Source: Cyanophora paradoxa CCMP329 (Eukaryota > Plantae > Glaucophyta). Taken from it: a stretch of DNA of 57,314 nucleotides. Where the stretch lies: contig QPMI01000052.1 in assembly GCA_004431415.1 (NCBI GenBank), positions 1 through 57,314 on the forward strand, read 5' to 3'. The first letter of the stretch is position 1, and the number at the start of each line of letters is the position of its first letter. Shown here in pieces: positions 2,699 through 22,195 of the stretch. The translations under genes were made by a program, and so were the position numbers. Below the pieces are notes generated by a model. That model was not told the DNA's origin. It did not search any database and was given only the letters and a program-made list of their open reading frames with translations.

Positions 2699-2739
2699 TG
2701 TATCTTTATTAGAATGAGAGATAATTTTATAAACCGCGT

Positions 2740-3499
2740 TTATATCGCATCAATTTATTGCTATGGACTTGGCTTTCACTTCTTTGGGGCTTCCTCTTTC
2801 TCTGGTGGTTTCAGTTCATCTTCTTTCTTTTTTGGCTTCCTGTGGAAGCGAGGAAATGGGAAATCTTTCACAAGCTCAGCTTTATCTACATAGTATTTAA
2901 CTGAGTAGTTTGCAGAGGACCAAATGATATACTGATAGAGTGAACATACTCTTCAAACATCTTGTAGAAATCCTCTTATTTCGCATTATATTGTATTCTT
3001 CCTCTATGGCTTCCAGTTCTTTGCGATTTGCAGCACTTAGAAACATTGCATAATCCGAATTTACTCGAATAGTCGAAGAGACTTTTCTTAGCTTTTGTGT
3101 GATGCAGATAATGGATATTTTCGAATGGCGACCTCTGGAATACAGAGATCCGATTATTTTATCCCTTGTGAGATCGACTATTCATTATCGATTAAATCAT
3201 CTAAAACCACACACAATTGGTTAACAGGTTCACCTTTCTCTATTTTCTTGCCTCTCATCTAGCAATTTAGCAATGTAAGGGGCATCCCATTTTCCCAGTT
3301 GCAGTGTTGCCACTTTATCCCAGAATGATTGAAGCTGGTTCCACTCACAACTAATACAACATCATCTTTTGGCATCATGTAATTGCTTTAACCAATACTT
3401 TACAGCTTCTGATTTACCAGTTGCTGATTTTCCTATTGCCAATACACGAAATGGTGGTTCTATCATTTCACCAGCCACAAATTCATCCAAATCAGTCAT
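2740..3499 (-). CDS. A32/FtsK-HerA family viral DNA packaging ATPase (frameshifted)
   Basis: MTDLDEFVAGEMIEPPFRVLAIGKSATGKS (Walker A), CVVLDD (Walker B), SRGRHSKISIICITQ (arginine-finger/sensor motif typical of A32 ATPases) and IRVNSDY. The 3' end is approximate. Confidence 0.9.
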
Positions 3500-3559
3500 T
3501 GTTGTATATCTTTCTTAATAAAGACATATAAAATAATGCAGGGAGACTGAATATCGTAA

Positions 3560-4925
3560 CAATCTATAATTAATTCTGCGTAAACCATCTTTGTCGACAA
3601 TAATAAAGCTATGCATGAGAGCGCGAACATTAACATCGATTACCTTATCTGAAGGCATGTAGAGGGTGAGGAATGAGAGGAGGAATTTGTTAAATCAACA
3701 TAACCAGACTGGGCAATATTTCGAATCGCCTTTTCTCCATCAAGGCAGAAAGGCAATCCTGAAAGGACATAGCGATCAGCAACCTTATCCATGTTAGAGC
3801 ATTTGAAGGCATCAGCAATTAGCTCAGCACCTTTGAGTAGGGAAATTGGCTCAGTGGCAAAAAGTCGCTGACCATTTATTTCAGTTGTAAATGTTATGTC
3901 TTTGGAGTTGGCATAGGTCTTAAGAACACTGTGGAGCCATTGGATTTGTCAACAGTTGCATTATCACGAACTGAAACAAGCAGAGCATATACAAGACCTG
4001 AGATTTGAGAGAGGTTAATTCGATTGGGTTGGGCATTGCCCTTAGCAGGGAAAGCAATAGCATCAACAAATCCAATATCAAGGGAGGAATAGCCATGCCA
4101 GTAGTCTTAACTTTTTCAATTACAGTAGCGAAAAGCTCATCAGAAACATTAATAGCATGCATATAAAGGCGAGGAGAAGTAATTGAAATTTCAGGAGTTG
4201 TTGCACCAAGAGTAAAGTCTGTGATGTTTTGACCAACATTTGCCAGAACAGTTTCAGCAGGGGCAGTTCCAAGACCATCATCTTTTGAATAATCTACATC
4301 AGCTGCTGCAACAGTAAGACCACGACCACATAGGATGTTTCAACATAGCCTTTTCCAACATCCTTAAACCAAACAGTAACAACCATTTCACCAGATAAAG
4401 CACCAAGGGGAAGGTAGTGATTTAGCCAAGGCACTGGAATTTCAACGAAAAATGAGCCACCAAGTCGGTTGGTTCCATGAGCAGGGATGCCATGAACCAT
4501 GCCATTGATCGTTTCTTTTTAGCTAGTTGATCCTCCGAATAATAGACCAGGGGAAATGAGCAAGGAAATCAGATGGAATATGGTAGGTGTAAGATCCATA
4601 GGTAATTTCAAGTCGCTGAACTAAAGCACCAACTGGGCGAGTGTATCCATTGCGAACTAGATCAGTATCACCAGCAAAAGTGATAGCTGGAAGGTCAAAA
4701 GCAAGTTCGAGTTTTCCACAGAAATTGTAGCGAGGTAGCTTGAAGGAAATGCGATTTCCTACATTATTTGTGAAAGTATTACTAGGATTCACAACAACTA
4801 GAACTGGCTTAGACTTGGATTCGAGACCAAGCATAAGGGAGTTATCCAGGAAAAGGCTTTCGCCTCCTCTGGGTTGTTAGGGCTTCTTTCAGCGAAAGTC
4901 TTTGAAGAGTGGAAGTGATATCCAT
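3560..4925 (-). CDS. Major capsid protein, double jelly-roll type (frameshifted, roughly 450 aa)
   Basis: Collinear beta-rich fragments from an ATG at 4925: NRISFKLPRYNFCGKLELAFDLP, VQRLEITYG, FFVEIPVPWLNHYLPLGAL...VTVWF, ending MHSFIIVDKDG. Size and position between the ATPase and penton genes fit an MCP. Confidence 0.75.
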
Positions 4926-5027
4926 TATATTCTCTTTTATTATACTGCAACATAAAAAATCTACCAATGATCCTTAATTTATGCGAAGTTTGTAATAACT
5001 GGATAGGAAGGTGAAGCTGCGACATTC

Positions 5028-5974
5028 TCATCTTATAGTATTCATAAACTGGGTCCCAGCTGGCTCATCACCATAGCGAATTTCAAAGGTAAGATGAACA
5101 GGTTGACCCTCGAAATCAATTGGTTCATTAACAGCATTCACAATATCAACCGAGAAAGTGGATAATCCAACCTTCTTATTATAGTATTTGTAAAGTGGAT
5201 GAGCCTCTGTCGAATTGTAAACTACATGCTCACCATAATCTTTGTCAGGGACCACTATTTTATGGAAGTAACCAGTCAGGAGACCATCCCACATTGCACC
5301 AGATCACCCAGCTCCTTTACTCTCACAACAAACACTGTCCTGTCATTTCAGGCTCAAATGAAGATATAATACCGTTTACTCGAGTTCCAGTAAAGATTCC
5401 ATCAGTGAGAGCATCATAGACTGTGATTTGATTGGGGAATTACCATATCTTCCAGGATCAAGACCAAAAGTCGAGCTGAGCTTAACAGCTTTTGGATTGT
5501 TTTCAGGTTTGGGTCTACAGCAAGTGAGAAAGCCAGGTAAAACTTTTTTCGGAATGGAATATAATTCGTTTCAGTGACTCATCCATTTGCAGCGAACAGA
5601 TGGTTTAGGATTTCTGTCATTAAACTTTTCATTTATAACATTCACCAGCTGTTGGTGGTTTTGAATGGGGTTTCGCGATTTACAATGAATTGTTTCCATT
5701 GTTCAAATCAGCAGCTGGGCGAGTTGTTGGAATTCCTGTAATTCCAGCTCCCGCAAGCTCTTCAGAATAATAAATACTAAAAGTGTTGTCAACTGTTATA
5801 TCTCCTGCTTTGGTTTCACCACTCACCATAGGGATGCTGTTATAAAATTCGGCTGAGACCAGTCTCACAGCCTCACATTCTCATAAGTACTGGGGAGTCT
5901 AGCCACAAAGCTTGATGTGGGACCATCACCAGAGATTGTATTAAATGAGCTAACTCGATGTAATCCACAGGCAT
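5028..5974 (-). CDS. Minor capsid (penton-like, single jelly-roll) protein 1 (frameshifted)
   Basis: N-terminal SSFVARLPSTYENV-AVRLVSAEFYNS and C-terminal FSVDIVNAVNEPIDFEGQPVHLTFEI match the terminal patterns of PLV/NCLDV pentons. Confidence 0.7.
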
Positions 5975-6003
5975 TCTTCTTTTATCTATATTTATATATT
6001 AAA

Positions 6004-6934
6004 ATGAACCGGCTCGTTAATATTGATAGCAGGGATAGAAGCCAAGGACAAAATGAAAACTCTTACAGGGTCACCCTCACAACTCCAGTAGAGAGACCAA
6101 GGGAATGCAGGGTTCTATATGCAGAGATTCCAAACAGCATCTATAACAGTGTGGGAACTGATCATCTAACAGTTCAGTTTAATTACCAAGATGGTTCATA
6201 TAACCAAGTGATCACACAACAAGTGTATCCCTTCCCAGTGGCTACATCAATCAGGGTCATTTTGGGGTAACACACCTTATAATTATGGGCTGAACTATTC
6301 AAGCTTCCAAACTATTGCAGGCAAAACAGTAGCTTTTGAGTTCAAGATATTCTACAACCCAACAACCTATAAAGTGGAGTTTTACAGTAACCATGAGTTT
6401 CGTTTTATTGCAAGCAACCAGAGAATAGGAAAGCTTTTGGGTGTAAGTTCTACTGAATACACCACTGGGTATTATAGCACTCCTCCTGTTGGTGGATCAC
6501 CCTATCGACCTGAGAACCTGTTAAAGTATGATGGCAAACCTATTACACCTGATCACCCAGCATGGGGAATCACCTTCTCAGGACCCAGACTCTCCTCTAA
6601 GCCCTTGCAATATTATTTTGACAGCAGGAAGATGTCTGATATGAATGCTGAGCAGTATCTGTACATGCATATTAAAGAGCTGTCCCCCTTTGCCAGCAGA
6701 CACAATATAATTCCAAAATCGCAACCACAAAATCAGGGAGCTATCCTTAGATTGCAATTGAGTAAAGATATAGGGGGCTATGTTTACCATAGTGGTGAAC
6801 ATGCAGAATTTATTCAAATCAATGACAGAAACCTGGTGATAAGGGAACTCACTGTGGAGTTTAAAGATTACTTTGGTGAACTGATTGATATGAATGGAAT
6901 CGATAATTCTTTTCAGTTGGAGTTTATCGAATAA
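6004..6934 (+). CDS. Minor capsid (penton-like) protein 2 (frameshifted near 6260)
   Basis: MNRLVNIDSRDR...YRVTL...VLYAEIPNSIYN at the N-terminus and LTVEFKDYFGELIDMNGIDNSFQLEF at the C-terminus are penton-type signatures. Confidence 0.75.
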
Positions 6935-8478
6935 AGGCACCTGTAAAGTCAACTCTCATTGTGGGAGCATTCACATACACAAGGGGATAAATGCGAATAT
7001 ACTTGATTCTCAGAGAATAACCTATGTAAAAAGCATCCTTGATGCTGAGAGGAAATCCACTCAATAGAGCCACATCACCTGAGTTGTGAGCATTGTTAAT
7101 GTTCTCACAGACATACATTTTGTTTTGCCCATCTGATCGAATAAAAGACCAGTTGATCCCATCAGTGGATGTTGCCACATTGAAAGTCTTAATAAAAGCA
7201 TTGGTGTCCCCTGAGCCATAGGCAATCACAGAGGAGAGTTCAAAAGTGTATGGGAAAGCAACTTGAAGGTATTCAGTGGGGGTTTCCCATATCTGCTCAG
7301 GAGCAAAGGCTCCAGCTTCCCAGCCAAATGCTGAAGGTCTTGCCATGAAAGGCTCTTTACCTGTCACAGAGGATGAGGCAGTAAAGGCATCATCTGCAAG
7401 CTGATACCAATTGGCATCCAAAGGAGGTGATGTAGTGAGAGTGGATGAAATGTAAGCCTTTGAAGGGTTCTTTAGTTCATAGTTTGCTACTAGAAGGCTG
7501 CAAAGCTTATTGATCATATCATTGTTTGCTGCAATGTATGTTTCAGTGAATGCAAGCATGTCTGGGATCTTAGATGTGTCATCCAGGGAGCTTACTATAT
7601 GATTTGGAAGAGGGACTGATAACCTATAGTATCTCCCATAATCCTGATCATAGTTGTAGGGTAACAACTCCTCCATCTTATCAAGGGCAGAAAGCTCACT
7701 TGCAGCCATGAGCATGTTAATCAATGGGCTTCCATCTGTTGAGGCAATCCATGAGAGAATGCCCCAGCTGTTTACAGTCTCATAAGCATAACCCACATAA
7801 TCAGACTCTAAATGTGGGTCTACCTCACCACAAGAGATGCTTATTACTATAATATCATCATCATCACTGTAAATCTTCTTTGCATGGCTGTAACCACACA
7901 CACTGGGATTATTGTTTCCCGAAATGGCACCATCAATGAGACAGACATATACTCCCCTATTGAAATCAACAATGCTTACAGGAGAGAAATATGTAGGAGC
8001 AGCAGAAGTAGCCCTAGCAGCAATCTTACAAGGCATAAAGTTGTAATTGTTGTCATTTGTGATAAATATTGGTTTCATATTCTGAGTATCAAAGGATGTG
8101 ATCACAATGTCCTTAAGGGAATCCTGTATTAGTGATTCACCAGTAACTGAATTGATTGCAGTCTCCAAGGGTCCCACATCATACTTTGTGTTAAATAGGG
8201 CATTTTCAATGATATTTCGAGGATTTGCGAAAATCAAGGGCAGTTGAGTTAGGTAAATATTGTGTAAATCGTTTGCTGTCAGTTTAGGTTCACCTGGTTT
8301 ATCAGGATGCCTGATGTTTAACCCAATAGCAATGATCCCACCAGTGGAAGTTCCACTCACAGATCCACAAGATCGATTATTCTCCTGCCAGTTCGATTTT
8401 CGATTTCTTTGAGCAGCCTGGTTATGATAATGCCCCTTGCACCTCCCCTGACAAACTGAGAACTACTTTGAGAGGCAT
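6924..8478 (-). CDS. Patatin-like phospholipase fused to a C-terminal discoidin (F5/8 type C) domain
   Basis: ATG at 8478 reads MPLKVVLSLS-GGARGII (glycine loop, one G missing from a G run), then GTSTG nucleophile elbow, ATSAAPTYF and DGA. The C-terminus EYLQV...STDGINW...KYIRIYP...MRVDF is discoidin-like. Confidence 0.9.
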
Positions 8479-8521
8479 CTTTTACTTATCAGGAATTTTA
8501 TAAATCCATATAGTAAAAGCC

Positions 8522-11500
8522 ATGAGCTTCAATTACCCACCCAATCTAGAAACCATTCAAGATGATAATGCAAGCAGCACCAAGCATGTGAACTTTGATA
8601 ATATTAAAGTAAAGGGTTCAGTTTCAATTGACCACAGCTCTGATAATTCATCAAAGACTCAATCAAGGGAGCATGCTTTATCTGTGAATCAAACTGATCC
8701 AGATAAAGAGGATGTCAGTGTAGCTTTTAGTTTGGGTAATGTGAAAGCAAACCAAGTGGCAGAGATCAAAGCCACCAGAAGGAGACCTAGGAAACTCAAA
8801 ACCAGTGGCACTCATCCAGATATACCTTCCAGGTTCGATAGTGGTCGATTGATTTTCAATGTTCAAGATGAGCAGGGCAAACAGAACACAGCTTTACGAA
8901 TTTACAATGAGGGCAGCACTGCAAAAGCTGAGGTCCCCCAAGTATTGCAAGTGGGTCCCATTGCCAATACAAATCAGGTCTCCTACACAAATGATGTCTA
9001 CCCCAAGGATATTACATATGACTTTGCAAGAAATGAGCCTTTTGGGTTCTTTACTCCAAAAGATGTCCATCAAAAAAAGCCATCAATTACAATCAACAGT
9101 AGCCCCAGTCAACCAGTAGCAATCCATTTGCATCCTGATTTAGTCGAAATGGATAGGCACCTTTTGCCTTTGTATAGCAATGTGAAAGACCTTGGAATTC
9201 GAACCAGGCAATGGCGAAATATCCATGGCAGCAATGTGTATGCAAATGGAGAGAAGCTTGTTAGTGAGAAAACTCTAAGGGAAATCATTGAGCATTATGG
9301 TCCCAATGGACCTACTGTCCCATTCCCTATTCCATTTCCCAATGGACCACCCGATCTAACACCAAAGAAGCAGCCTGGAAGAGAATACACAGCAACTGAA
9401 GATGTAGCCTTTGGGCAGCATATTGTGAGTTGGGAGCAAGTTCGCAATAAACCTATAATTGAACCCAGAAAGCAAATAGATGAGCAGTATTTACCTCCTG
9501 AAATCGATATATTAGAGCTTGAAGAATATCAATTCGTTCCAGATGAGGAGGAGTATTTACCAGATGGTTTTGACCCACAAGAGTATGAGTATGATCAATT
9601 TGACCCCAATGAGGAGGAGATACTACCAGATGGCTTAGATCCTCAAGAGTTTGAGTATGAGCAGAACTATGAACCTGATGAGGAGTATTTGCCAGATGGG
9701 CATGATCCACCAGTTGTTGATTATGAGCAACCTTATGAACCCCATGAGGAATTATTACCAGATGGATTTCGACCTGAGATCTGGGAGTTCTTTCCTGATT
9801 ATGAACAAATTAATAATAAACCTGCAAAGTATCCCCCAGAGGATCACAATCATGATTGGGATGAGATCTTAGGCAAACCTCAAAAGTATCCACCAGAGGA
9901 TCACAGGCATGATTGGGGTGAAATTGATGGGATACCTACTGAGTTCCCACCAAGCAAACATGAACATACTTGGGATGAGATAAATGACCAACCAGAATTC
10001 GCAAAGGTGGAGCCTCTTGATAACTTGGGGGTTTCTCTTTACCAGACTTGCAATGTCCCTGAAAGGATTTTTTTGAATGAACACTATGTTCATGTGAATG
10101 GGACACTTGCAAATTCAGCTATGAGAGGACCACTTCATATTAGGACATTACCAGGCTCTTATGATCCACCACCTGAACCAGGAGCAACCATACCAAATAT
10201 CTTTGTGTCAAGCTACATGGAGGCTGACATTCCCACAGATACATTCAGAGTCCCAACAGACCCAGCAACCTACCAAAATTTCAACTCTGCTATACAGGTT
10301 CATGTAGCAGATGTAAGCAGTTTAGATGGATCAAGACCAATGATAGTATTCAGTCGAGATAAATATTCCTACATTCCCATAGTGGGAACTGCAAATGATA
10401 ACTATGGGAGGGCAGAGCTTGCATGGATTAAAACAGATTATGGTGGGGTTCTGGAAGCCAATCAGAGGATGGCTGCAAAAAACATACACAATGAGAACAT
10501 TTCGAGAGTGGTCACAGAGGATTATTTAGAAGAGCAAGGATATATTGATGAAGGTGAATTAACAAACATTCTTTCTCTTTTTGTGATCAAAAATGACACA
10601 AACCTTACAGTCACAAGTAACATTTTCACCAGTAACCTTTATACAAGTAACATATGGGCAAGTAACATATGGGCAAGTAACATATGGGCAAGTAACCTAT
10701 GGGCAGATGATATTTACACAAGTAATCTTACAGTGTATCGAAATATAACAATTGGAACACAAAATACTATACAAATACTTTATAGACCTTACTATGCTGT
10801 TACTACTGTCATTGATCCAGCCCCAATTATTCCAAATTGTATATTTGCATGGAAAGCATCAGGTCAACATGGTGAGTTGATATATTTCGAAGGTCAGTTA
10901 TATAACAGAGTTACTACACAGATACCATACATTACAAATAATTCGAAGTGGGAAAGTGTTTATTATTATTTGAATGCAACCCTGAACAATCAAATTTCGA
11001 TTGGGAAAGAATTAAACTTGGCTTATAGGAGTAGTGTTTCAATAGATTGGTCATCAGGTCTTACATTATTCTTTATAGGTAGGATCAATACAACAAATCC
11101 TTCTTATATGTTGAATATAAGGGATAGTTCTTATCAAAATTGGATTGGATATGGTTGTAAAAATCAAAAGTTTGGGGTTTCACTTCAAATTCAAAACGAT
11201 GTAGAAAATGCAACTCCTCCATTATTCGATGCATCATATATATATAATTCGTGGAATTATTGGGATTTCACTGTTTCCTCAGAGAAAATTGTTGTAGGAA
11301 TGGGTGGTGTAGATATCGGAACTTCATCAGGTTATTTTCTTCCACCTTCTAATTTTGCATCATTTGGTTCTTCTGTTGCTAATGGAGATCTTGCCGAAAT
11401 TATCGTTTTCAATCGTGCGTTATCTATTGAAGAAAAGAACGCGGTTAGATATTATATACAATTATTGTATGGATTTCCAAATACGCAGCCCATATTGAAT

Positions 11501-14500
11501 AATGAAGATCTTAAAATTAATTCGAGCAATATATTTATTGAAAATCTCACAGTTACCAAAAATGCAACTCTACCACATCATCCAACATCGAATGTTGTTT
11601 TAGATTGGTTAGCAAAACAAAAACACACAAAAGCAGATATTACGGATTTCGCCCATACTCACACAAAAGATCAAATCACAGATTTCGCCCATACACACAC
11701 CAAAGATCAAATAACAGATTTTGCCCATACTCACACCAAAGATCAGATCACAGATTTCGCCCATACACATTTATGGGAGCATATCACAAATCCTCCATTA
11801 ACCTTCCCACCTGATTCACATACTCATGATTACTCAACAATAACCAATAGCAACCACAGACACCCTTGGAATCAAATAGATGAACAACCTACTTTTGCAT
11901 CATCAGGCAATATTTTGACAGACTTTACAAATGGTGTGAGTCTCTACCAGAGTAATACCATACCTGAAAGGCTACAACTAAATGATTATTATGTCAATCG
12001 AAAAGGCATTGATGCAGGGACCACAATGGAAGGTGAATTATACATCAAACAACCAACAAGAATCCAAATGATTTCAGCAGGTGGTGTTGGGGTGATTGAT
12101 ACCAAACCAGGCATCTTCTTAACAAGTTATTATAATGAGGACATCCCATTGACATCAGGATTACCACCTCTCCCATCTGATCCAGCAGCATATGATGATA
12201 AGGATGCCATTATGCAAGTAAATGTAACAGATGTCAGTGCAACTGATGGCTCCAGACCTAAAATAATATTCAGTCGATCCAAATTCAATTATGTCCCACT
12301 TGTGGGACAACCATCAGATAACTATGGGAAATGCGAAATGTCCTGGATTAAAACATTAGCAGGAGGAGCCTTAGAAGTCAATCAGAGGATGGCAGCAAAA
12401 AACTTACACAATGAGACCCTCTCTGGTGTTGTTACAGATGATTATTTAGAAAACAAAGATTATGTAACAAATACAGAATTACAATTAGCTCTTACAGATG
12501 TTGTAACAGATACCGAATTAACAGCAGCTCTTGGGAATTATTTACCTCTAACAGGTGGGACTGTCAATGGAACTGTGAATGCTACCACTCTACAAATTGG
12601 TGGAACCACAATACCAAAAGGTTATGATTTCGACCAATTAGATGTTATTTCGACAGACAGATCTCCAAATAACTGGACTGTTACTTGGGCATCAAGAACA
12701 GGGCAAAATGGATGTCATACCACACCACAAAATGATGAAGATTGCAGTGGTTGTTGGATGAGATGGCTCATTCCCACAGGTATGAAATCATTTTATATCC
12801 AGCACATGCCTTGGTATAATTGTAGATATTTTGATATCTATGGGCAAACAGTCAATGGATATCAACATTTCTTAAAACGAGTAAATGCCTATCAGGGAAT
12901 TCAACAGGTGAATCAGGATGGAACACATAATACAATCTTGTTTGTCTCTATCAATTGCGAGTTTTACAAATATATTTATGTTCAAGGTCGAAAAGGTCGC
13001 ATTCATCTCACAGGTGTTTTTGGGTGGAGCAGACAGAGAGCAACAGATAATGAATTGGGCATGATCTCTTGGGATAATGTATTTAGTAAACCTGATTTTG
13101 CAGGCACTTATGCAACAAAGGCAGAAGTCCCTAACGTTTTAGGTGATCTATTGACAGTGAACTCTGTGGACTGGCACAAATCAACAGATAATATTCCAAG
13201 GTTTTGGTTTGGTAGTGGTAATACAACATATATTCGAGGGTATGGGAATGGTGAAGGTGTCTCTATCGAATTTAGAAATTCAGGAGATACAGCCATTTTG
13301 AAGTCTTATGACAATGGTAACCTTTGGGTAAATAATACCATTACAGCAACCACTATAAATGCTACTACAAATCTCCAAATAAATGGTAATGCTGTTCCAA
13401 AGTTTCACACAGGAGATGCCTCAGTTGCAGGTAGTTCTCCATATAATTATTCTTCTGGTTGGAATTTCGGGTATGGATCATCATGGGATCCATATTATAA
13501 TTATGGTGGGTATGCATTTAATAATGAAGTTGATGACCAAACTTCTTCCGCTTGGATAGAATACAATATACCCGATGGTTTACACACAGGAACAGCATAT
13601 TTAACATATTTACCTTGGGGAAACTGTCGATTGTTTGAGATTTGGGGAATTAATCGACAAGGAAATGGTATTTATATTACAACTGTCAACAGTTACAACC
13701 CATATAGCACCTCAGCAGATGGTAACCATAGTGGTGTAAATAATGTTCAAATCCATCTTGGAAATCGTTTTATTCGCATTCGGATTTATGCAAAAGTTGG
13801 AAGGGTTCACATTATGGGTATTAGTTTTATGAAAGTATGGAATGGATCCAGTTATGGTGGTCACACAGGTTTTATCCACTGGGATAATGTTTATAGTAAA
13901 CCTTCTATGCTTACATTAACAAATGTGACTAATTCGATAGGAAACATTACAGGTTTTGATACTTGGAGTGGAACAGGTTCTTACAGCTTATCATTTAGTG
14001 GATCTTGGACAACAGGTTGGACACCAACCTACACAAATCCAGTCGATGGATTTTATAGTAACATTTCAGGCGATGAAACAGATGGTGGTTGGGCGCAAAT
14101 TGAAGTCCCAGCCAATATGAAAACATGTCATGTTCAGTATATGTGTTGGACAAATTGCAGATATTTCGATATTGGAGGCTATCGAAATGGGAGGTGGCAT
14201 CACATTATGAGGGTGAATTGCTACCAAGCCGTTTCAAATAATTACGATTCAGATTGGCATGATGGCTTAACATGGACTTCTTTCCATTGTGATACATTCT
14301 CTCATGTAAGATTTGTTGCAAGGAAAGGGAGATGTCACATTGGAATGATTGGATGGACAAAAGAAAAAGGAAGAACAGCCCCAGCAAATGGTTTTATAAG
14401 TTGGGATAATGTATATAGTAAAGATGCTCGCACAACTTGGGCAACCGGAACTTGGATTACTTCAAGTGAAGGTTATTCAAGAATATATTTCGGTTCAGCA

Positions 14501-14947
14501 TCAACTACATATATTAGAGGACATGCAACAACAGTAGTAGAATTTAGAAATACGTGGGATACACATGTAGCATTTATAAATGATGATGGATACATGTGGG
14601 TTAGAAACTATCTCGGACAAGGTAGCGATAGAAGATACAAAACCGATATTAAAAAGATAACTGGCGCTCTTTCAGCAATAGAGAAATTAGAAGGAGTGAG
14701 TTTTAAACGAATCGGAAGTGAAAAAGATGGAACAAGATTAGGTTTAATTGCGCAAGATGTGCAACAGGTAATACCAGAAGTTGTGAGAGCAAAACAAGAC
14801 GATGGCTACTTAGCTCTCGAATACACAGGTTTAATTCCAGTTCTCATAGAAGCCGTTAAAGAATTATCCCAGAAATGCAAAGATTTAACACAAACATGTC
14901 AGAATCTCCAAAGTCAAATAGATCAAATTAAAAATATCTCAGTATAA
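8522..14947 (+). CDS. 2141-aa modular fibre/adhesin with C-terminal peptidase S74 intramolecular chaperone
   Basis: Intact ORF with acidic EEYLPDG repeats, PP-H-H-W and HTHTKDQITDFA phage-tail repeats, a LamG-like GDLAEIIVFNRALS segment, YLPLTGGT, three copies of a ~110-aa domain, and SDRRYK...GLIAQDVQQVIPEVV...LIEAVKEL from 14624. Confidence 0.9.
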   Translation: MSFNYPPNLETIQDDNASSTKHVNFDNIKVKGSVSIDHSSDNSSKTQSREHALSVNQTDPDKEDVSVAFSLGNVKANQVAEIKATRRRPRKLKTSGTHPDIPSRFDSGRLIFNVQDEQGKQNTALRIYNEGSTAKAEVPQVLQVGPIANTNQVSYTNDVYPKDITYDFARNEPFGFFTPKDVHQKKPSITINSSPSQPVAIHLHPDLVEMDRHLLPLYSNVKDLGIRTRQWRNIHGSNVYANGEKLVSEKTLREIIEHYGPNGPTVPFPIPFPNGPPDLTPKKQPGREYTATEDVAFGQHIVSWEQVRNKPIIEPRKQIDEQYLPPEIDILELEEYQFVPDEEEYLPDGFDPQEYEYDQFDPNEEEILPDGLDPQEFEYEQNYEPDEEYLPDGHDPPVVDYEQPYEPHEELLPDGFRPEIWEFFPDYEQINNKPAKYPPEDHNHDWDEILGKPQKYPPEDHRHDWGEIDGIPTEFPPSKHEHTWDEINDQPEFAKVEPLDNLGVSLYQTCNVPERIFLNEHYVHVNGTLANSAMRGPLHIRTLPGSYDPPPEPGATIPNIFVSSYMEADIPTDTFRVPTDPATYQNFNSAIQVHVADVSSLDGSRPMIVFSRDKYSYIPIVGTANDNYGRAELAWIKTDYGGVLEANQRMAAKNIHNENISRVVTEDYLEEQGYIDEGELTNILSLFVIKNDTNLTVTSNIFTSNLYTSNIWASNIWASNIWASNLWADDIYTSNLTVYRNITIGTQNTIQILYRPYYAVTTVIDPAPIIPNCIFAWKASGQHGELIYFEGQLYNRVTTQIPYITNNSKWESVYYYLNATLNNQISIGKELNLAYRSSVSIDWSSGLTLFFIGRINTTNPSYMLNIRDSSYQNWIGYGCKNQKFGVSLQIQNDVENATPPLFDASYIYNSWNYWDFTVSSEKIVVGMGGVDIGTSSGYFLPPSNFASFGSSVANGDLAEIIVFNRALSIEEKNAVRYYIQLLYGFPNTQPILNNEDLKINSSNIFIENLTVTKNATLPHHPTSNVVLDWLAKQKHTKADITDFAHTHTKDQITDFAHTHTKDQITDFAHTHTKDQITDFAHTHLWEHITNPPLTFPPDSHTHDYSTITNSNHRHPWNQIDEQPTFASSGNILTDFTNGVSLYQSNTIPERLQLNDYYVNRKGIDAGTTMEGELYIKQPTRIQMISAGGVGVIDTKPGIFLTSYYNEDIPLTSGLPPLPSDPAAYDDKDAIMQVNVTDVSATDGSRPKIIFSRSKFNYVPLVGQPSDNYGKCEMSWIKTLAGGALEVNQRMAAKNLHNETLSGVVTDDYLENKDYVTNTELQLALTDVVTDTELTAALGNYLPLTGGTVNGTVNATTLQIGGTTIPKGYDFDQLDVISTDRSPNNWTVTWASRTGQNGCHTTPQNDEDCSGCWMRWLIPTGMKSFYIQHMPWYNCRYFDIYGQTVNGYQHFLKRVNAYQGIQQVNQDGTHNTILFVSINCEFYKYIYVQGRKGRIHLTGVFGWSRQRATDNELGMISWDNVFSKPDFAGTYATKAEVPNVLGDLLTVNSVDWHKSTDNIPRFWFGSGNTTYIRGYGNGEGVSIEFRNSGDTAILKSYDNGNLWVNNTITATTINATTNLQINGNAVPKFHTGDASVAGSSPYNYSSGWNFGYGSSWDPYYNYGGYAFNNEVDDQTSSAWIEYNIPDGLHTGTAYLTYLPWGNCRLFEIWGINRQGNGIYITTVNSYNPYSTSADGNHSGVNNVQIHLGNRFIRIRIYAKVGRVHIMGISFMKVWNGSSYGGHTGFIHWDNVYSKPSMLTLTNVTNSIGNITGFDTWSGTGSYSLSFSGSWTTGWTPTYTNPVDGFYSNISGDETDGGWAQIEVPANMKTCHVQYMCWTNCRYFDIGGYRNGRWHHIMRVNCYQAVSNNYDSDWHDGLTWTSFHCDTFSHVRFVARKGRCHIGMIGWTKEKGRTAPANGFISWDNVYSKDARTTWATGTWITSSEGYSRIYFGSASTTYIRGHATTVVEFRNTWDTHVAFINDDGYMWVRNYLGQGSDRRYKTDIKKITGALSAIEKLEGVSFKRIGSEKDGTRLGLIAQDVQQVIPEVVRAKQDDGYLALEYTGLIPVLIEAVKELSQKCKDLTQTCQNLQSQIDQIKNISV
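9480..9990 (+). repeat. Coding repeats: acidic (E)EYLPDG-DP units followed by His-x-His-x-Trp units
   Basis: About 5-6 degenerate EE(Y/I/L)LPDG units, then three K(Y/F)PP-xH-H-W units. Confidence 0.85.
10644..10703 (+). repeat. 15-bp tandem repeat encoding SNIWA
   Basis: caagtaacatatggg occurs three times exactly, plus one copy with a single mismatch. Confidence 0.95.
11621..11770 (+). repeat. 36-bp tandem repeat encoding HTHTKDQITDFA
   Basis: Four units with synonymous differences. Confidence 0.95.
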
Positions 14948-14950
14948 TAA

Positions 14951-15256
14951 ATGGCAACCTATCCACTTGGTGGAACCACCTATTCTACTGAGCCTGTTGC
15001 GCTTTCTTTCGATACAATCACCCTTGTAAACGCATTACAAACAGTTGAAAAAACGATTCAGCAAACCAATAAGCTCTCACCAGTTGTCAATGAGTATAAA
15101 AACCTCTTGGTTAATGTCCTTGCCAAATCTGCATATGGTGACCCTGTTGCTAAATACAATGAGTGTGATAACAACATTAAAGCAATGACGTCCAACCTGC
15201 AAGTTCTTTCAACTGTTTACCAATCCCTTGGATCGAATTTAATCACTTTGGCTTGA
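14951..15256 (+). CDS. Small helical viral protein (101 aa), unknown function
   Basis: Intact ATG ORF starting 3 bp after the fibre stop codon. Confidence 0.7.
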   Translation: MATYPLGGTTYSTEPVALSFDTITLVNALQTVEKTIQQTNKLSPVVNEYKNLLVNVLAKSAYGDPVAKYNECDNNIKAMTSNLQVLSTVYQSLGSNLITLA

Positions 15257-15295
15257 TTGCAGTTTATTTTTCTTTCCTTCTTAGTAAAAGAAGCA

Positions 15296-16141
15296 ATGGG
15301 TGAATATAATCGAGTTCAACTGCCTATATACTCCCTTGGATCCCCTGCAATGCATTTTCGCCAGCATGAAGTAAATGATGAGGTTCGTGGTTTAGAATCC
15401 ACAGAGAGACCCAACTCCAATGGCAACTCCTTTGATAAAAATTCGATTATTCGAGTTAAAGAGCTGAGAGCTGATAAGAATTCTGGTGTGGTTAAAACAA
15501 CTCGACTTCTTGTCACCAATGCTAACTTCTTCCAGCCTACAAATGGAGGTCCTGATGCTTACAGTGTTGCCCTGAAAGCCCTAGATTTCGACAAGAATAC
15601 TGCTGCTGTTACTGTGAGATCAGGAGGAGCATTTATTGGGGGAGGTTGCAGAGTTTCAGGTCAACTCTCATCCTCAATTTCGTATAATGATGTCCCAGAT
15701 ACTCTAGAGCAAAATGTGGAAGACCCCCAACGAATTCGATTATATACTCCTGTCGCACAGCAGCCATTAATTCAATTTTACATTGGATATACTGTTACTC
15801 TTGAAAACTCGGAATTAATTGAAGGAACCAAAAGAGTACTGAGAGGTCTTGCGATTCCATCTGCAATGCTTTCCCTTTGTAGAGCCAACAACAATCAAGT
15901 AGGTCATAAATACTATTTCAATGTTCAGGGATATAATCATTTCGGTTATGGCTACTGTGTTTATAATAATAATTTCACCTTTGACTTGTTTGTTACAGAT
16001 ATTGGGTTATATACTATAACTCTTATCGGTTTGAGAACAGATATAGCTGCTGTCTCAGCTCTTAGAGGTGTAACTCCTGATACTCTTTCAGTTACAGGGT
16101 TTTATTCGGAACCAGATATTATTGATGACCCAACCCCATAA
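15296..16141 (+). CDS. Short fibre-like viral protein, paralog A
   Basis: ATG at 15296. Shares GL-STE...ELR-DKN-G-VKTT-LLVTNANF...SGGA-IG and a terminal RTD with the next ORF. Confidence 0.75.
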   Translation: MGEYNRVQLPIYSLGSPAMHFRQHEVNDEVRGLESTERPNSNGNSFDKNSIIRVKELRADKNSGVVKTTRLLVTNANFFQPTNGGPDAYSVALKALDFDKNTAAVTVRSGGAFIGGGCRVSGQLSSSISYNDVPDTLEQNVEDPQRIRLYTPVAQQPLIQFYIGYTVTLENSELIEGTKRVLRGLAIPSAMLSLCRANNNQVGHKYYFNVQGYNHFGYGYCVYNNNFTFDLFVTDIGLYTITLIGLRTDIAAVSALRGVTPDTLSVTGFYSEPDIIDDPTP

Positions 16142-16164
16142 AAGATATATCCCTTTAATGTAAA

Positions 16165-17001
16165 ATGGCAGAGGCACCCACACCAATAGAGCGAATTATA
16201 ACACCACAGCTATCATTAGCTGCCCCAGCAAACCATGTTCTGCAGCATGCTACATTTGATGATGTGGAAGGTCTCCAATCCACAGAGGTCCAACCTACAA
16301 TGAACACCTTTGGTTCCACCCACAAACTGAGATTACAGGAACTCAGATGTGATAAAAATAATGGAATAGTTAAGACAACTAAGCTACTTGTCACAAATGC
16401 AAACTTTTCTGCTCATTATGGAGACCCAGATAGCTATGGAGATCCTCTGTCTACTTATTCTTTTGAATCTAGGTCGGGAGCTATTAACTGCAAATCGGGG
16501 GGAGCTTATATTGGTGATGGTCTTAGGGTTGGTGGGGCTGTTGGAGCGCCTTTATTTGTGAATGATCAACCCAATCCCATTGATCCCAACACAAGAATTC
16601 GAACCTATGTCCCCAGCATGAATGCCCCCTATATAATCAAGATATTCCCCATTGTTGTGAATGAACAAACAGCAGTAGTAGATTCTCTTGTTGAAATTGG
16701 TGACCACTACAAGGTAGTTGTGGATATCCCACCAGATGTTTATGCTCTTTGTCAAGTAGAGGGTGGAACTCCTAATTTTGCTGTTGTGATCACCCCATAT
16801 GATAATTTCGGAATTGCTTATCATGGAGTCAATTTTGGTTTGGAAGATTATCAGTTCCTGGTTAGAGCCACCAAGTTTGGTATCTACAAGTGTGTATTAT
16901 ATGCTGAGAGAACCGATTTTATTGCAAGGCAGAATACCTATGCTGAATACTATGGCACAAATCGATATTTCCCCATTTTTGGGCAGGATACTGCTCCATA
17001 A
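16165..17001 (+). CDS. Short fibre-like viral protein, paralog B
   Basis: Intact 278-aa ORF; clear tandem paralog of 15296-16141. Confidence 0.75.
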   Translation: MAEAPTPIERIITPQLSLAAPANHVLQHATFDDVEGLQSTEVQPTMNTFGSTHKLRLQELRCDKNNGIVKTTKLLVTNANFSAHYGDPDSYGDPLSTYSFESRSGAINCKSGGAYIGDGLRVGGAVGAPLFVNDQPNPIDPNTRIRTYVPSMNAPYIIKIFPIVVNEQTAVVDSLVEIGDHYKVVVDIPPDVYALCQVEGGTPNFAVVITPYDNFGIAYHGVNFGLEDYQFLVRATKFGIYKCVLYAERTDFIARQNTYAEYYGTNRYFPIFGQDTAP

Positions 17002-17023
17002 GAATATTGGTTATATATAGAGT

Positions 17024-17296
17024 ATGGATAGTAAAACAAAAAAGTTTATTGATGCTGCTATGACAGTTCATGGTAAAGATAAATTCGATTACAGTGAGAC
17101 ACATTACATCAAAGCTCAAGAGAAAGTATCTGTTAGATGTTTGCAGTGTAATAAGGTGATCCTTACATATCCCTTTAATCATGTGAAGGGATCAGGGTGT
17201 AGGGAATGCAACAAAAAGCACTCTCAGGCTTACAGGAAAAGGGCTACTTCATCAATTAGAGTAGAGTATAGGGATATTTGCATTAGGTTCGATTAG
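17024..17296 (+). CDS. Stand-alone zinc-ribbon repeat unit (DUF723-like, homing-endonuclease-associated type)
   Basis: KFI-AA--VHG--FDYS---Y-----KV-V-C--C......HV-GSGC--C pattern; no nuclease domain follows. Confidence 0.7.
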   Translation: MDSKTKKFIDAAMTVHGKDKFDYSETHYIKAQEKVSVRCLQCNKVILTYPFNHVKGSGCRECNKKHSQAYRKRATSSIRVEYRDICIRFD

Positions 17297-17325
17297 GTTT
17301 AATTAATTTTTCTAAGGTATTCTTA

Positions 17326-17724
17326 ATGGAGACTCAATACAGAGGCTTTCATGTTATGCTTGATTACAAGGCTAAATCAGCTATTGCAACAGGACATGAG
17401 CATGTTAGCTTCCTAGGTAATTGGATTATGGGAACCCTTGAACAAGCTATATTAAGACAAGGCATAAGAATTGTTCATAAACACTGTGAGATATTTGATG
17501 GGAAACTATCACCTCCTGGTTTTGCATTGGTTCTGCTATTAGATGAAAGCCATTGCACAGCTCATTGTTATTCCAATGAAGGCATGTTAGCAATTGATAT
17601 ATTCAGTTGTGGTAAAGAAGCTCAGCATAAAACACAAGCAGTAGCAGATGAGATCGATAAAACAATGAATTTCTTAACATTTGAGAAGACTGAGAGACAT
17701 AAACATGATAGATTCCCGTTTTAA
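17326..17724 (+). CDS. speD: Pyruvoyl-dependent S-adenosylmethionine decarboxylase proenzyme family (short prokaryotic type)
   Basis: G-HVMLD, F---PPGFALVLLLDESHCTAH-Y--EG-LAIDIFSCG: intact E-S-H autocleavage site and the conserved DxFxCG. Confidence 0.9.
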   Translation: METQYRGFHVMLDYKAKSAIATGHEHVSFLGNWIMGTLEQAILRQGIRIVHKHCEIFDGKLSPPGFALVLLLDESHCTAHCYSNEGMLAIDIFSCGKEAQHKTQAVADEIDKTMNFLTFEKTERHKHDRFPF

Positions 17725-17939
17725 TGGGTTTCTATAATGATAAACAGGGTAATTTATCTTTTTTATTACAATAGCTTTCTACAATGATTATTTTCCGGAT
17801 TCCGGACATTGTTTACAATAGAATTCTACTGTATGATGTAGCCAAAATATGAATGCATCCTAAACCTACAAGTGTAAGATTTCGAATACTATTCGATTTC
17901 ATTACAGTAAAACTCAACATTCCCCCTATTATATAATAT

Positions 17940-18660
17940 TTATATTAAAGTGGACTCAAGGTTGACTCATATTAATCGTAAAAGTAGTAATAGTATATGG
18001 ATTTTGTTACGAATTCAATGCAAGGGTTGACTAAGTGGGTTGAGTTGACTCAAATTTCACAGGAAATATTTGGGACCTAAAGTTTTCTAAAAAGGATTTG
18101 AAAAAATGTGTCAACTCCCCCCACTTAGTCAACCCTGACCATAAACAGTAAGGATTTGAGCTAACATGTATCACAAAGTGAACATTTTGAGTCCACTTAG
18201 AAGATCCACTTTTGAAATCAAAGTTGATTTTGCTTGAAATTTCAAAGTTGATCTAAAAGTGAGTCCACCCTGATTGATTATGGTAACAAAGTTGACTAAG
18301 TTGACTAAGTTGAGTCATCTTAAGAAATTCAAGGAGACTAAGAGTTCAAAATGTTTATGAAAAGTGAGTCAACTTAGACCACTTATGGTAACAAACTTAA
18401 ATATTTAATTGATTTAATCGGAAAAGAACATGATTTAATCGAATTTATTGATATAATTCCGATTAGATTCATTTAGGATTCAATTAAGATCAATCGAAGT
18501 TATAGATATAATTCCGATTAACTACAATTAAGATACAATATCGATTAATCGAGTTTATCGATATAAAATCGATTAAATTAATTGAAAATGCATTTAAAAA
18601 TATGAAAATTCATGTGAAAATTCAAATAAATTAATCGATTTTATTGATATAACATCGAAT
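17940..18660. repeat. Non-coding subterminal arm with direct and inverted short repeats (candidate origin/TIR)
   Basis: 30-bp imperfect inverted repeat at 18023-18052 / 18107-18136, many GTTGACT/AGTCAAC units, ttatggtaacaaa twice, and AATCGA/TCGATT-rich repeats at 18400-18660. Confidence 0.75.
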
Positions 18661-18661
18661 C

Positions 18662-18740
18662 ACACATATGAATATTCATATTTTAATCCTGAGGCGGAAC
18701 GGTTCCGCCTCAGGATTAAAATATGAATATTCATATGTGT
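18662..18740. repeat. Perfect 79-bp terminal palindrome (39-bp arms, 1-nt centre)
   Basis: acacatatgaatattcatattttaatcctgaggcggaac-G-gttccgcctcaggattaaaatatgaatattcatatgtgt; ends exactly at the AT-to-GC switch. Confidence 0.98.
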
Positions 18741-21700
18741 AAGGCTGTCGACGCCATGTTCGCGGAACGGTTGGCGTACTTCTGGGACGTGCAGGACGAC
18801 GAGATCGAGGACGGACACGGCGAGAACGACCTCGCACGAGCACTTCGACGACGCCTCACGGCTATTTGGCCGGACACTCTCGGGCTCACCACGACACCGT
18901 TATCTCGTCCCGACCCTGAATTCTACCCGAATCCCGTAGCAGACGGATACTACGAGATCGCGGGAAGGGGGGGCAAGCGCTTCCGCGATCACGCCCTTGT
19001 CCCCAAGGAACGCGATTTTCTCCCGGATTACGGGTCTCTCGAACCCCCACTTCCCCCTGAGCTTTACGGTACGGAGGCGGGCGACGCGATCCTGGAAGAC
19101 ACGACACGCGACGACCTTGTCTCGTACTCCCAGCCACCGATGCCGTTCCTTCAGCAGCGACGGATGCTGGCCAGCTTATACTCGCTTTCCGAGGAGTATC
19201 AGCTTCGGGGGCCGTGGTTGACGGGAGCTATCTCGGAAATCTTCACGCGTCCTGAGCGCCCCGTGGAGAGGACCAACAACCCAGATCCACAGGAGGGCGA
19301 CCTTCCCCTGGATCGCACTCAGGGCGGTCTCCATGCGATTCGACTCATGCATGGTGACGCCGACATCGACAACTTCTTCCGCAAGTTTTATCCGCTGCGA
19401 CCTCTTTACGGTCTCTTCTACGCGGGAACGAAGAATCTCATTCGGGCGTGCGATCGGGCCATCCGCTTCCGTAGCGATCCGGAACTCAACGCGTACGGCG
19501 CGGGCCTTCGTACAGACGGACCCCGCCTACGCAACCGTGGAACGACATGGTTCAAGCAGTTTTCCATTACGACCTCCAACGAGGCCTCTCCGTCCAACCC
19601 CTACAGGTCGTATCTCACGGCTGCAACGAACCCGACCTTGCAGCCTAGCTTTGTTCCGGAGCTGCGTCTCTCGGAAGAGGCGGGTGACCCGACCACTCCG
19701 CTCTTCCCCGACCCCGTCAACACTCCGACTCAGACCCCTCCATTCCGCACCTTCTTTCACGTACCTGCGGACTTCAGCGGCAACGCCAACGGGCCTCTTC
19801 TTGCAGCCCTCGACCCCACGCCGAACCGAGGGGTGCGCAAGCTCACCATGTACGATCCAAACCACACGGACACGTGGACACTACTCACGAATGGCATTCG
19901 CCCGTCTCGCGAAGACGCGCGGACCATCGATTACGTACGGCTGGGGATCAGTGCAAGCAACATGCTTCTTCCGGGCGGCATCATTCACGAGACTCACGAA
20001 CGCCTCGCGGGTACGGATTGGCAACACGTCGTCATTGCCTTCCCGCTCGACGTCCACCTCTACATCGCGGGCATTGCCTTTTTCGTCGCACAGTGGGGAA
20101 TTCTTTCCAGCTCCTTCCCCACGCACGTCGTCGATCTCCACCCGGCGTTGCACCGCATGCTGTCAGATTACGTGCACCGGATGCGGGAAACATTGGGTTT
20201 TACTGTCAATGAAACCGGCATCGCCAGCTTGACAGATTACTGGACGAGCGAGTCCAGCACGTGGTCGCCGGCATACCGTATTCCGGCGGGCTCTCTACAA
20301 TCGGCGTTGTCGGCACTTCTCCTCAAGTACATCATCGCTCACAACGCGCGCCTCGTAGTCCCTCGTGACGTGCATCGGAGGGTGAACCGCAACGGCCCCA
20401 ACTACAACACCCTGCGGCAGCAGCTGAACGAGTTCAAATCGGCACGCCTGCAGCGCTGGTGGCCGAACGCGTTCACTCTCACGGACGAGCTGCGGGAGCT
20501 ATTCAAATCCGAGACGGTCACTGCGGAGCAGGCTGAGAACCTCACGCCAACAGCAGGCTTCGTTGAAGTGGACCGCAACATTATCACGGCCCAAATCCGC
20601 GACTTCATCGACGTGATGCGCCCTCATGTCGAGAACGCCATGGCGGACGAACTTGACCCGGACACGGACGCCTGGGATCCATTCCTCATTCGCCTCGGCG
20701 CAGTCCTCTACGAGCCGGACCTGCGACTGGAGCTGTCGAACTGGATCACACGGGTCTTTAATTGGCCGAGCTCTCCCTCGACGGAGAACTACGACTACAG
20801 CAACTCGCTGTACTACACTTACGAGGCGATTCCCCCGCTCCGCTACTCAGACTCCCGACCCGATGATGAGGACTATCGGCGACACTTCCCGCACGTGTAC
20901 TACGAGTGCTCGCCCGGTCCTGGTCGCTGGACTTCTCCATTCGATGGTCTAGCCGACGACCACAAGGTCTTCAATCCGCTCAAGTTCGCCCTCCGCCACA
21001 ACCCCGCTACTCCTCGAGTGTATGCCATCTACGAGGCGCCGTACGCGGACCGGCTCCCATCCGAGCAGCGGACGGCCGATCTCCCGGCGACGCCGACGCG
21101 GTGGTCCATGTCCCCGAGCCTCGGGCCCGCGGACGTTGACGGCGCCCCTGCTTCGCCGCCTCTTCATCCGCGTGGCTATCGCATCCTGCGAACCCGTCGC
21201 CGCACTCTGAAGCCTGTGCGCTCGCGGGTGGAAGGCTGGAACGCTACGCGGCGCCTCTACTACGCCCACTCGATCGCCGACGCTCTGCGACAGCACACGA
21301 GCTCCACGCCCCCGGACTCGACTTCGGCGGGGTTGACGGCGACGGGTGCGGCAGCGGTCCCCACTGCAACGGTGACGGTCAAGATGGCAACCGTGACGGC
21401 AGCCGTCGCGCCTGACGACGAGATGTCCAACGCCGACGCAATCTGGGGTTCGGATGACGAGATGCCGACGGCGCCCACGTCTGCGGCAGAGGACCCGCCT
21501 CCGCCTGACGACACTGGCGTGCCTTCCGACCGCCCCACCTCGCCTTTCCCGTGGTACTGCGGTCCTCTCCCGATCCCGCGCAACGGACTTCTCTTCGTGG
21601 AGACCGCCGACTTCGCGTACTCTCCCTACTCGGCCCAGGGCACGCCGTACTGCTGGATCGAGTTCGCCCTGACGTCACCGGCTCACCAGACGATCATCGT

Positions 21701-22195
21701 GCCACGAGCGTCGCTGTTTGACGACGTGTCCTTCGCTCAGTCCTTCCACATGTACGACTGGAGCCGCCTTTCGCCCTCGCACTGCGTCAACGCTCAGTAC
21801 CTGGCCCGTCTCGCTGACGAACTACGCGACACTCCGGTCGTTCTCAACACCAGCGCGGGCTTGGCTTTGGAGCTGGCACGCTCGCAAGTCATCCTCACAC
21901 GCCTGGCGTTTGTCATGAACACGCTCGGTCGCCCGGCGTACGACGCGCTCCTGTACTCGTCGCTCGACTGTGTTCACGCTCAGCGTTCGCGTTACTACGT
22001 CGACATCATCCTACGCGGCGACCGTGGGCTGACCCAGGCCTGGCCGATCCTCATTCAGTACCTGCGGAAAACGGCCCCGTTCTTCCGTTCGAGCCTGGCG
22101 TACGAGACTCTGGGACCGTACATGGACCCTCGAGAGATCACGGTGGCCCAGCTGACGTTGGACCCTGGACTCGAGACGGACGAGGGTGCGGGTGG
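18741..22195 (+). CDS. Large retrotransposon ORF1 region (gag position; no recognisable motif), 5'-truncated
   Basis: More than 1100 open codons directly upstream of the protease; the frame is already open at the junction. Confidence 0.6.

Follow-up and report, generated by a model that had tools for sequence, protein, structure and literature searches.

Why has a virus-like insert in an algal genome lost nearly all of its CG dinucleotides except those that follow a T or precede an A? The insert lies in a 57,314-nt stretch of Cyanophora paradoxa CCMP329 (assembly GCA_004431415.1, contig QPMI01000052.1, positions 1-57,314 of the forward strand), which we will call the window. The GC content of the window is 34-42% up to about 18.7 kb and 59-67% from there to 30 kb; beyond that, it is mostly 65-82%, with 48-62% at 37-41 kb. 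(C. paradoxa is reported to have 67.6% GC and a mean intron length of 86 bp; PMC6704402. The high GC content, starch metabolism, and numerous short introns of the host part fit this description.) Positions 1-18740 (39% GC), which carry the depletion, appear to be the right part of an endogenous Polinton-like virus whose left end is beyond the window: the GC content steps up near 18.7 kb, there are putative capsid, ATPase, and fibre genes, and thousands of short-read contigs match this region at 80-100% identity. As far as can be judged from the predicted proteins, these genes match the set reported for Polinton-like viruses in PMC12220804. The virus abuts a Ty3/gypsy-type retroelement (18741-28580, + strand; protease, reverse transcriptase, RNase H, and the zinc domain of integrase), whose 5' side is cut by the virus and which gives us a CpG-rich internal control. 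An earlier note on this DNA had remarked on the CG pattern and had attributed it to avoidance of, or erosion by, an enzyme that spares TCG and CGA. We confirmed and extended the observation; the interpretation is partly supported. Our depletion analysis at length covers one copy of one element, in its visible right part.

The earlier note had placed the depletion at 6900-17800, where the observed/expected ratio (o/e) of CpG is indeed just 0.31, and where 104 of the 124 remaining CGs (84%) have a 5' T or a 3' A. The depletion is not limited to this region: it covers the whole visible body of the element (1-17800; o/e 0.36), with one of these flanks at 209 of 245 CGs. Two subregions in which almost all survivors were said to have these flanks are as described, with 23/23 CGs in 6960-10700 and 26/27 in 15260-17700. 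For comparison, in 500 shuffles that preserved dinucleotides, the TCG/CGA share averaged 54% and peaked at 65%. ACGT, CCGG, and GCGC are nearly absent from 6900-17800, as noted before (3, 2, and 5 occurrences, versus 49 for TCGA). The protective base may be viewed as the 5' T or as the 3' A of the affected cytosine; the data fit either.

The trivial account that had been raised, namely retention of these CGs through AT content and codon usage, does not hold. We permuted synonymous codons within eight intact open reading frames (ORFs; 11,325 nt) and counted CGs with neither flank (no 5' T and no 3' A, or VCGB). There are 19 of these, versus 99.0 ± 7.6 in the shuffles, and none of 600 shuffles was as low. 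CGs with one such flank (TCGB or VCGA) number 57 versus 120.9, while TCGA numbers 51 versus 41.5. Among the CGs that span codon junctions, 47 of 55 are in TCG or CGA, versus 56% in shuffles. The viral codon usage is correspondingly skewed: CCG encodes 1 of 207 prolines, ACG encodes 5 of 286 threonines, GCG encodes 7 of 214 alanines, and TCG encodes 18 of 277 serines; all 11 of the CGB arginine codons are preceded by T. A 5.4-kb stretch (6011-11417) has no VCGB at all, versus 105 expected, and retains 40 CGs in TCG or CGA.

The adjacent host and retroelement DNA is CpG-rich, as had been claimed. In these segments, CpG o/e is 1.05-1.15, the TCG/CGA share is at or near the first-order expectation, and the first-order flank ratios (0.86-1.21) have no common order. 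For the retroelement alone, CpG o/e is 1.15 and the flank ratios are 0.93-1.10. Codon shuffles of its ORFs give small deficits (VCGB 637 versus 684; GGCC 56 versus 72), and ACG is not lowered (1.06). We also compared the element to 11 viral contigs from a search with its S-adenosylmethionine (SAM) decarboxylase-family protein. These are from unrelated viruses and were used solely as controls. Their TCG/CGA shares are 0.50-0.75, versus 0.85 in the element. Some of these contigs (L003, L006-L008, and L010) have palindrome holes of their own; for instance, L010 contains no TCGA, ACGT, or GTAC in 14.6 kb.

Does the element obey a sharp rule? When the two strands are folded together, CGs fall into ten classes, and the o/e declines by steps from TCGA (1.28), TCGC (0.74), and TCGG (0.42) to TCGT and GCGC (0.27 each), GCGG (0.15), CCGG (0.12), ACGC (0.09), ACGT (0.08), and ACGG (0.07). 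A model in which each flank acts independently and multiplicatively fits these ten classes (deviance 3.9, df 6), with per-strand survival factors of 1.17 for T, 0.56 for G, 0.34 for C, and 0.23 for A. Binary sparing of TCG/CGA is rejected (deviance 80.5, df 8), and so are uniform loss (204.7), loss from palindromes only (179.0), sparing of TCGA only (98.4), a three-class model (30.6), and an additive-rate or equilibrium model (18.5, p = 0.005). The model fit also rejects a protection specific to TCGA, such as by an adenine methylase. Palindromic 4-cutters alone are rejected as well: because ACGG/CCGT and ACGC/GCGT, which are not palindromes, show the same depletion as ACGT (o/e 0.07-0.09), the loss of CG is not a sum of such sites. 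The -2 position also matters, as CG o/e is 0.69 with C at -2 and 1.18 with T at -2. Given the flank-by-flank fit and the effect of the -2 position, we are seeing a gradient and not a recognition site. This graded form is the imprint expected of a CpG methyltransferase with flank preferences. Thus, the idea of an enzyme that spares TCG/CGA holds up as a graded preference but not as a sharp rule, and only TCGA is at its expected frequency.

The element has also lost several palindromes that do not contain CG, which went unremarked in the earlier note. Compared to a second-order Markov expectation, the virus has 1 GGCC versus 21.1, 6 GTAC versus 37.6, 33 GCAC/GTGC versus 83.6, and 15 CTAG versus 29.4. 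Compared to a third-order expectation, GDGCHC (0 versus 15.0, p = 3e-7) and CTRYAG (4 versus 19.5, p = 3e-5) are the lowest two of 788 degenerate hexamer palindromes. Codon shuffles give the same picture (GGCC 0 versus 13.8, GTAC 2 versus 28.3, GDGCHC 0 versus 10.2, CTRYAG 2 versus 12.3), with 0 of 600 shuffles as low. AGCT (o/e 1.25), GATC, TGCA, and CATG occur at least as often as expected. All of the lost motifs are depleted jointly along the element, and none is comparably depleted in host DNA. Sharp non-CG palindromes are not substrates of the eukaryotic methyltransferases DNMT1 and DNMT3. These enzymes therefore do not account for the loss of GGCC, GTAC, GDGCHC, and CTRYAG, which points to prokaryote-type enzymes. 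This loss is as strong as that of CG. The earlier suggestion of long coevolution with one host lineage stays conjectural.

GDGCHC and CTRYAG are both listed as type II sites in the supplement of PMC4687349, with 19 enzymes each, and GGCC and GTAC are the sites of HaeIII and PabI (PMC4081073). We give no p-value for the coincidence of GDGCHC and CTRYAG with listed sites, as the number of known sites among the 788 patterns was not counted. The depleted words are known type II sites, and their depletion exceeds what shorter words and codon usage predict, which are two of the features by which site avoidance is recognized. The loss of GCAC/GTGC is partly explained at most: the rows of type II sites in the PMC4687349 supplement include no GYRC entry. 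GCAC (28) is more common than GTGC (5), but we do not claim a type III-like orientation bias, as several of the 114 pairs compared have strand asymmetries. GTAC is also missing from several of the 11 control contigs. Separately, a host segment of about 55% GC at 37100-41000 has an over-representation of 4- and 6-base palindromes (CATG, GTAC, CTAG, AGATCT, and TCTAGA), which is the opposite of the virus.

To place these losses in time, we asked where the element ends. One contig of sequencing run X16 exits the element at 18740 into a different GC-rich sequence, so this end is common to an independent insertion. Retroelement contigs (957 nt) match the window from 18741 onward, with 465 other letters upstream. 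Together, these show that 18740 is the true end of the element and that this copy inserted into a pre-existing retroelement. Since the older retroelement at this locus kept its CpGs, the loss of CG belongs to the viral lineage and predates this insertion. This argues against erosion in place, as does the failure of the TpG/CpA excess to follow the depleted contexts (see below). The retroelement, a co-resident repeat whose methylation we assume from PMC12344493, did not decay in the same way.

The end of the element is a 79-bp terminal palindrome (18662-18740; -41.9 kcal/mol, z = -15.9). It is near-perfect and resembles a resolved hairpin telomere. Two 3-base pieces near its loop are missing from most other copies. 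Internal to the palindrome, the AT-rich non-coding terminus (17801-18740) has 13 AATCG/CGATT words, which are possible iterons of an origin or a promoter. TCGA occurs in it 10 times, and an inverted repeat lies within it (18023-18136). With a CG o/e of 0.92, the terminus is the sole part of the virus without CG loss.

The element belongs to a diverged family with many copies. Of the 24 sequencing runs listed, which all have one organism label, 20 contain at least part of the stretch, and 14 contain at least half of its words. In three DNA-type runs, 7997, 4763, and 3123 contigs aligned to 1-19800, of which 850, 733, and 624 were below 90% identity. (We did not take contig depth as copy number.) Parts of the element are also covered by contigs from runs that may be of RNA, which we do not count as a sign of expression. 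Among the 40 best-supported differences between the window and the contigs, two would create a CG that the window lacks and two would abolish one. None of the avoided motifs was gained in a variant haplotype that has 33 changes in 190 bases, a sample too small to count. Of the 229 indels, the 12 that are listed are all single bases, at 2116-5870, that are present in the contigs but missing from the window. The frameshifts in this region are probably assembly errors; similarly, frameshifts in such elements were considered to be likely long-read errors in PMC10120064.

We propose that, in the replicating lineage, selection removed the targets of two sets of DNA enzymes, and that this led to the flank-graded loss of CG and the loss of four restriction-type palindromes. 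This is tentative, and we give it a probability of about 45%. One set would be a CpG methyltransferase, most likely the host's DNMT1 or DNMT3, that silences integrated copies. Its efficiency at each CG would be set independently by each flank and would be worst at TCG/CGA, so that integrated copies poor in good sites would be reactivated, and would spread, more frequently. The site on each strand would then have its own hazard of loss, which would lead to the multiplicative pattern. The other set would be prokaryote-type restriction-modification enzymes that cut or modify GGCC, GTAC, GDGCHC, and CTRYAG, and their owners would most likely be giant viruses in the same infected cell. The complete lack of VCGB in 5.4 kb (0 versus 105) and the motif deficits in codon shuffles look more like purging than drift. 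The depth of this core purging favours selection over mutation.

Several published results are consistent with this proposal. C. paradoxa encodes DNMT1 and DNMT3, has 32% CG methylation, and has methylated repeats and methylated virus-derived genes (PMC12344493). The text of that paper breaks methylation down by dinucleotide context. Methylation of CG by the host has been tied to the silencing of integrated viruses in Amoebidium (PMC11244446), Acanthamoeba (PMC12210455), and Chlamydomonas (bioRxiv 10.64898/2026.10.09.758095). The flank preferences of CpG methyltransferases are reported to reach 100-400-fold. Giant viruses, which are the carriers known from protist cells, have up to five methyltransferases as well as complete restriction-modification systems, which degrade the DNA of competing viruses (PMC7253447), and giant endogenous viral elements occur in C. 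paradoxa (PMC12344493). The comparison with measured mammalian enzymes is mixed. Survival in the element is anticorrelated with their -1 preferences (source data of PMC11099192; rho = -0.85 for DNMT3A, -0.93 for DNMT3C, and, weakly, -0.38 for DNMT3B). For mouse DNMT1 (source data of PMC7381644, counted by eye), the top 30 sites have T at +1 in 14 cases and A in two, which fits the virus. We assumed that this table is sorted by preference, as it closes with the sites ranked 2 and 1 in Table 1 of that paper.

Other results weigh against our proposal. With both flanks considered, the mammalian enzymes fit in part: rho is -0.61 for DNMT3A, +0.07 for DNMT3C, and +0.48 for DNMT3B. (The rho values are six comparisons on non-independent classes.) Also, C at -2 is found in 25 of the bottom 30 sites of mouse DNMT1, so it is disfavoured, and yet the virus lost such CGs (o/e 0.69). 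By analogy, the mammalian data show only that flank gradients exist. We found no enzyme: the visible 18.7 kb has no methyltransferase motif, although frameshifts could hide one. In the Mimiviridae-virophage systems that they tested, Jeudy et al. report no role for methylation (PMC7253447), and for the loss of AGCT from pandoraviruses, restriction-modification was tested and rejected as the cause (bioRxiv 10.1101/712018). The virus has an excess of TpG/CpA (o/e 1.27, versus 0.86-1.08 elsewhere), which suits deamination without selection, although this is confounded by a deficit of TpA (0.75). Finally, two causes are less parsimonious than one, and a single copy was analysed at length.

A single source would be simpler. 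A helper or competing giant virus might be armed with several methyltransferases and nucleases, one of them directed at CG, and the element, as it replicates in that virus's factory, might avoid the sites of them all; the host's DNMTs would not be involved. Giant viruses do have such arsenals, giant endogenous viral elements are known from this host, and one cause would explain why the motifs were all lost in concert over the length of the element, while host DNA has no comparable depletion of any of them. But the CG arm is graded over at least two flanking positions, unlike a site, and dependence of the element on a helper would have to be assumed. We consider this reading to be unlikely, but it deserves attention. 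Less probable still is passive erosion: cytosines methylated by an enzyme of the host or of a virus would deaminate, and the changes would become fixed as the virus replicates in the absence of T:G repair, with no selection against the sites. The excess of TpG/CpA would then be the direct product, and the GGCC products GGTC (1.24) and GGCT (1.22) are mildly raised. Strand-biased deamination would also give more CA than TG on the + strand (1473 versus 1227) in both gene orientations. However, across 16 contexts the excess of products fails to mirror the depletion (Spearman -0.14; protein constraints add noise), and avoidance of TpA also feeds TG and CA. GTAT, which a C-to-T change in GTAC would produce, shows no rise (0.90), the additive-rate model that describes such an equilibrium was rejected, and the empty 5.4 kb is very deep for mutation alone.

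The element could instead make the pattern itself, by a polymerase bias or by a methyltransferase or nuclease that is encoded in the left part beyond the window or in sister elements. Polinton-like viruses of some hosts are reported to encode methyltransferases, and the signature is confined to the virus. Against this, no methyltransferase motif is visible (with the caveat about frameshifts given above), and five specificities are unlikely to come from one small genome, so we view this explanation as improbable. As for decay of this copy after insertion, or AT content and codon usage alone, these are largely refuted. The left part is frameshifted, as a decaying copy might be, and places where the window and the contigs differ are slightly richer in T>C and A>G than in C>T and G>A (369 versus 315, 422 versus 348, and 455 versus 406). 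But the older flanking retroelement is not eroded, the 12 listed indels are single bases that short-read contigs supply, the best-supported differences add and remove CGs equally, and shuffles that preserve codons or dinucleotides never reach the observed values.

Avoidance of motifs is already known in other settings. As in phages and bacteria (PMC4687349), palindromic type II sites are under-represented in the element beyond codon usage. The element differs in that it is a eukaryotic virus, in that TCGA, AGCT, GATC, TGCA, and CATG are untouched, and in its additional graded CG arm. The elimination of AGCT from A-clade pandoraviruses (bioRxiv 10.1101/712018) is also a stringent loss of a short palindrome from a DNA virus of protists, but those viruses are described as having lost one motif, versus at least five classes here, and AGCT is normal in the element. 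Loss of CpG is known from DNA viruses as well: in papillomaviruses, context-specific depletion was linked to TLR9 (PMC9040848), so a flank-dependent loss was read as the imprint of a host sensor. That case rests on a vertebrate immune receptor and is inapplicable to a protist host. In Amoebidium (PMC11244446), as we propose here, CG methylation varies with the flanking base, and viral inserts are methylated and silenced. However, the hot context reported there is CGC/GCG, and GCG is the second least depleted in the element. Also, PMC11244446, PMC7381644, and PMC11099192 describe measurements of methylation, whereas the element shows an imprint of depletion.

The element resembles the endogenous Polinton-like viruses of PMC10120064 and PMC12220804 in being a low-GC insert on the scale of 15-30 kb, in encoding a capsid protein, an A32 ATPase, and a fibre that ends in an S74 domain, in having a Ty3/gypsy neighbour, and in its frameshifts, which are probably long-read errors. 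Its fusion of patatin and discoidin domains is shared with Polinton-like viruses of rhizarian and glaucophyte hosts (PMC12220804). The available text of these two papers does not report depletion of CpG or of restriction sites, or a terminal hairpin. More broadly, our literature search, which most subscription papers fell outside of, found no report that Polinton-like viruses or virophages avoid restriction sites or have lost CpG in a flank-graded way.

If our proposal is correct, then the element makes quantitative predictions about the order of four flanks in host CG methylation and about four sites among the enzymes of giant viruses, and it bears on how integrated viruses of protists escape silencing by 5-methylcytosine. 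If such holes are general, then the k-mers missing from endogenous Polinton-like viruses, of which there are thousands, could be used to match these viruses with their hosts and helpers. A bolder reading, which we find doubtful, is that the viral genome is the negative print of a three-way epigenetic conflict. It would predict that the glaucophyte methyltransferase prefers ACG > CCG > GCG >> TCG, and that a giant virus that has not been isolated has a restriction arsenal against GGCC, GTAC, GDGCHC, and CTRYAG. The sequence would then be evidence that giant viruses use restriction-modification against virophage-like parasites, a defence that has been proposed but was reported to lack support in Acanthamoeba systems (PMC7253447). 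In this reading, the viral SAM decarboxylase might also act as a counter-defence, by depleting the methyl donor.

The predicted genes of the element include two hallmarks of a Polinton-like virus. A putative A32-like packaging ATPase lies in frameshifted pieces at 2900-3514 (- strand), with a hit to Pox_A32 at 2900-3181 (E = 3e-5, a score that passes the cut-off) and a Walker A motif near 3433. A probable double jelly-roll major capsid protein lies in frameshifted pieces at 3923-4876 (- strand). Its N-terminal piece (4526-4876) resembles the Capsid_N domain of nucleocytoplasmic large DNA viruses: against Capsid_N clusters, the language-model scores from ESM Atlas are 0.96-0.97, with 207 of 256 features in common at 0.97. 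This piece has no sequence match in Pfam or PDB, and we assigned the pieces downstream of it by their position. The candidates for a minor capsid protein, or penton (5887-6931), have no match in Pfam or NCBIfam. Polinton-like viruses are elements of 14-40 kb that have terminal inverted repeats, an integrase, and either pPolB or a primase-helicase; the visible 18.7 kb, which includes one end of the element, has no motif of integrase or pPolB.

Next to these is a patatin-like phospholipase fused to an F5/8 (discoidin) domain (6924-8462, - strand; PF01734, E = 5e-12; PF00754, E = 2.5e-6), for which a search with the patatin gave solely bacterial-type matches at 25-37% identity. On the + strand, 8522-14947 encodes a fibre-like protein of 2,141 amino acids with a C-terminal Peptidase_S74 chaperone (PF13884, E = 3e-16). 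Its internal repeats are acidic units of 22 aa near 9530-9770, units of 12 aa at 11618-11797, and a module duplicated at 10291-10541 and 12211-12460. The distal part of the fibre (11400-14947) is the least purged, with 14 VCGB versus 58 expected (the proximal part has 0 versus 53), and its contig cover is lower, as if it were exchangeable or had been swapped in more recently. Two paralogous ORFs of 281 and 278 amino acids (15296-17001, + strand; 37% identical) have no family assignment. Searches of viral contigs with the ORF at 15296, the capsid piece, the ATPase piece, alignment A2, and the terminal pattern found no relatives with DNA sequence, and none were found in metagenome contigs. Similarly, the capsid piece matched 0 of 124 candidates, and none of 10 proteins of the window was present in the collection that was searched. 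There is one relative at 63% (P0001), on a 1.3-kb contig.

Adjoining the terminus, an ORF of the SAM decarboxylase family (17326-17724, + strand; PF02675, E = 4e-11) has the conserved DESH motif (alignment A1) but is under the TIGR03330 equivalog cut-off. Its nearest relatives are 44-57% identical and are unnamed or metagenomic. We speculate that it could supply polyamines or lower the pool of methyl donor. Across 1-17800, the + strand has more CA than TG regardless of gene direction, and likewise more CAG than CTG (394 versus 231) and more CTTA than TAAG (80 versus 32). This asymmetry may reflect strand-displacement replication from one end.

In the host part of the window, an intron-rich gene at 30100-36830 has motifs, identified by eye, that resemble histidine kinase and receiver domains, so it is a putative hybrid sensor kinase. 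Exons of an alpha-glucan water dikinase (44250-49177, - strand; PDB 9qvi and 9ha9, E = 3e-11 and 0.002) lie between short GC-rich introns and mark a starch-making host.

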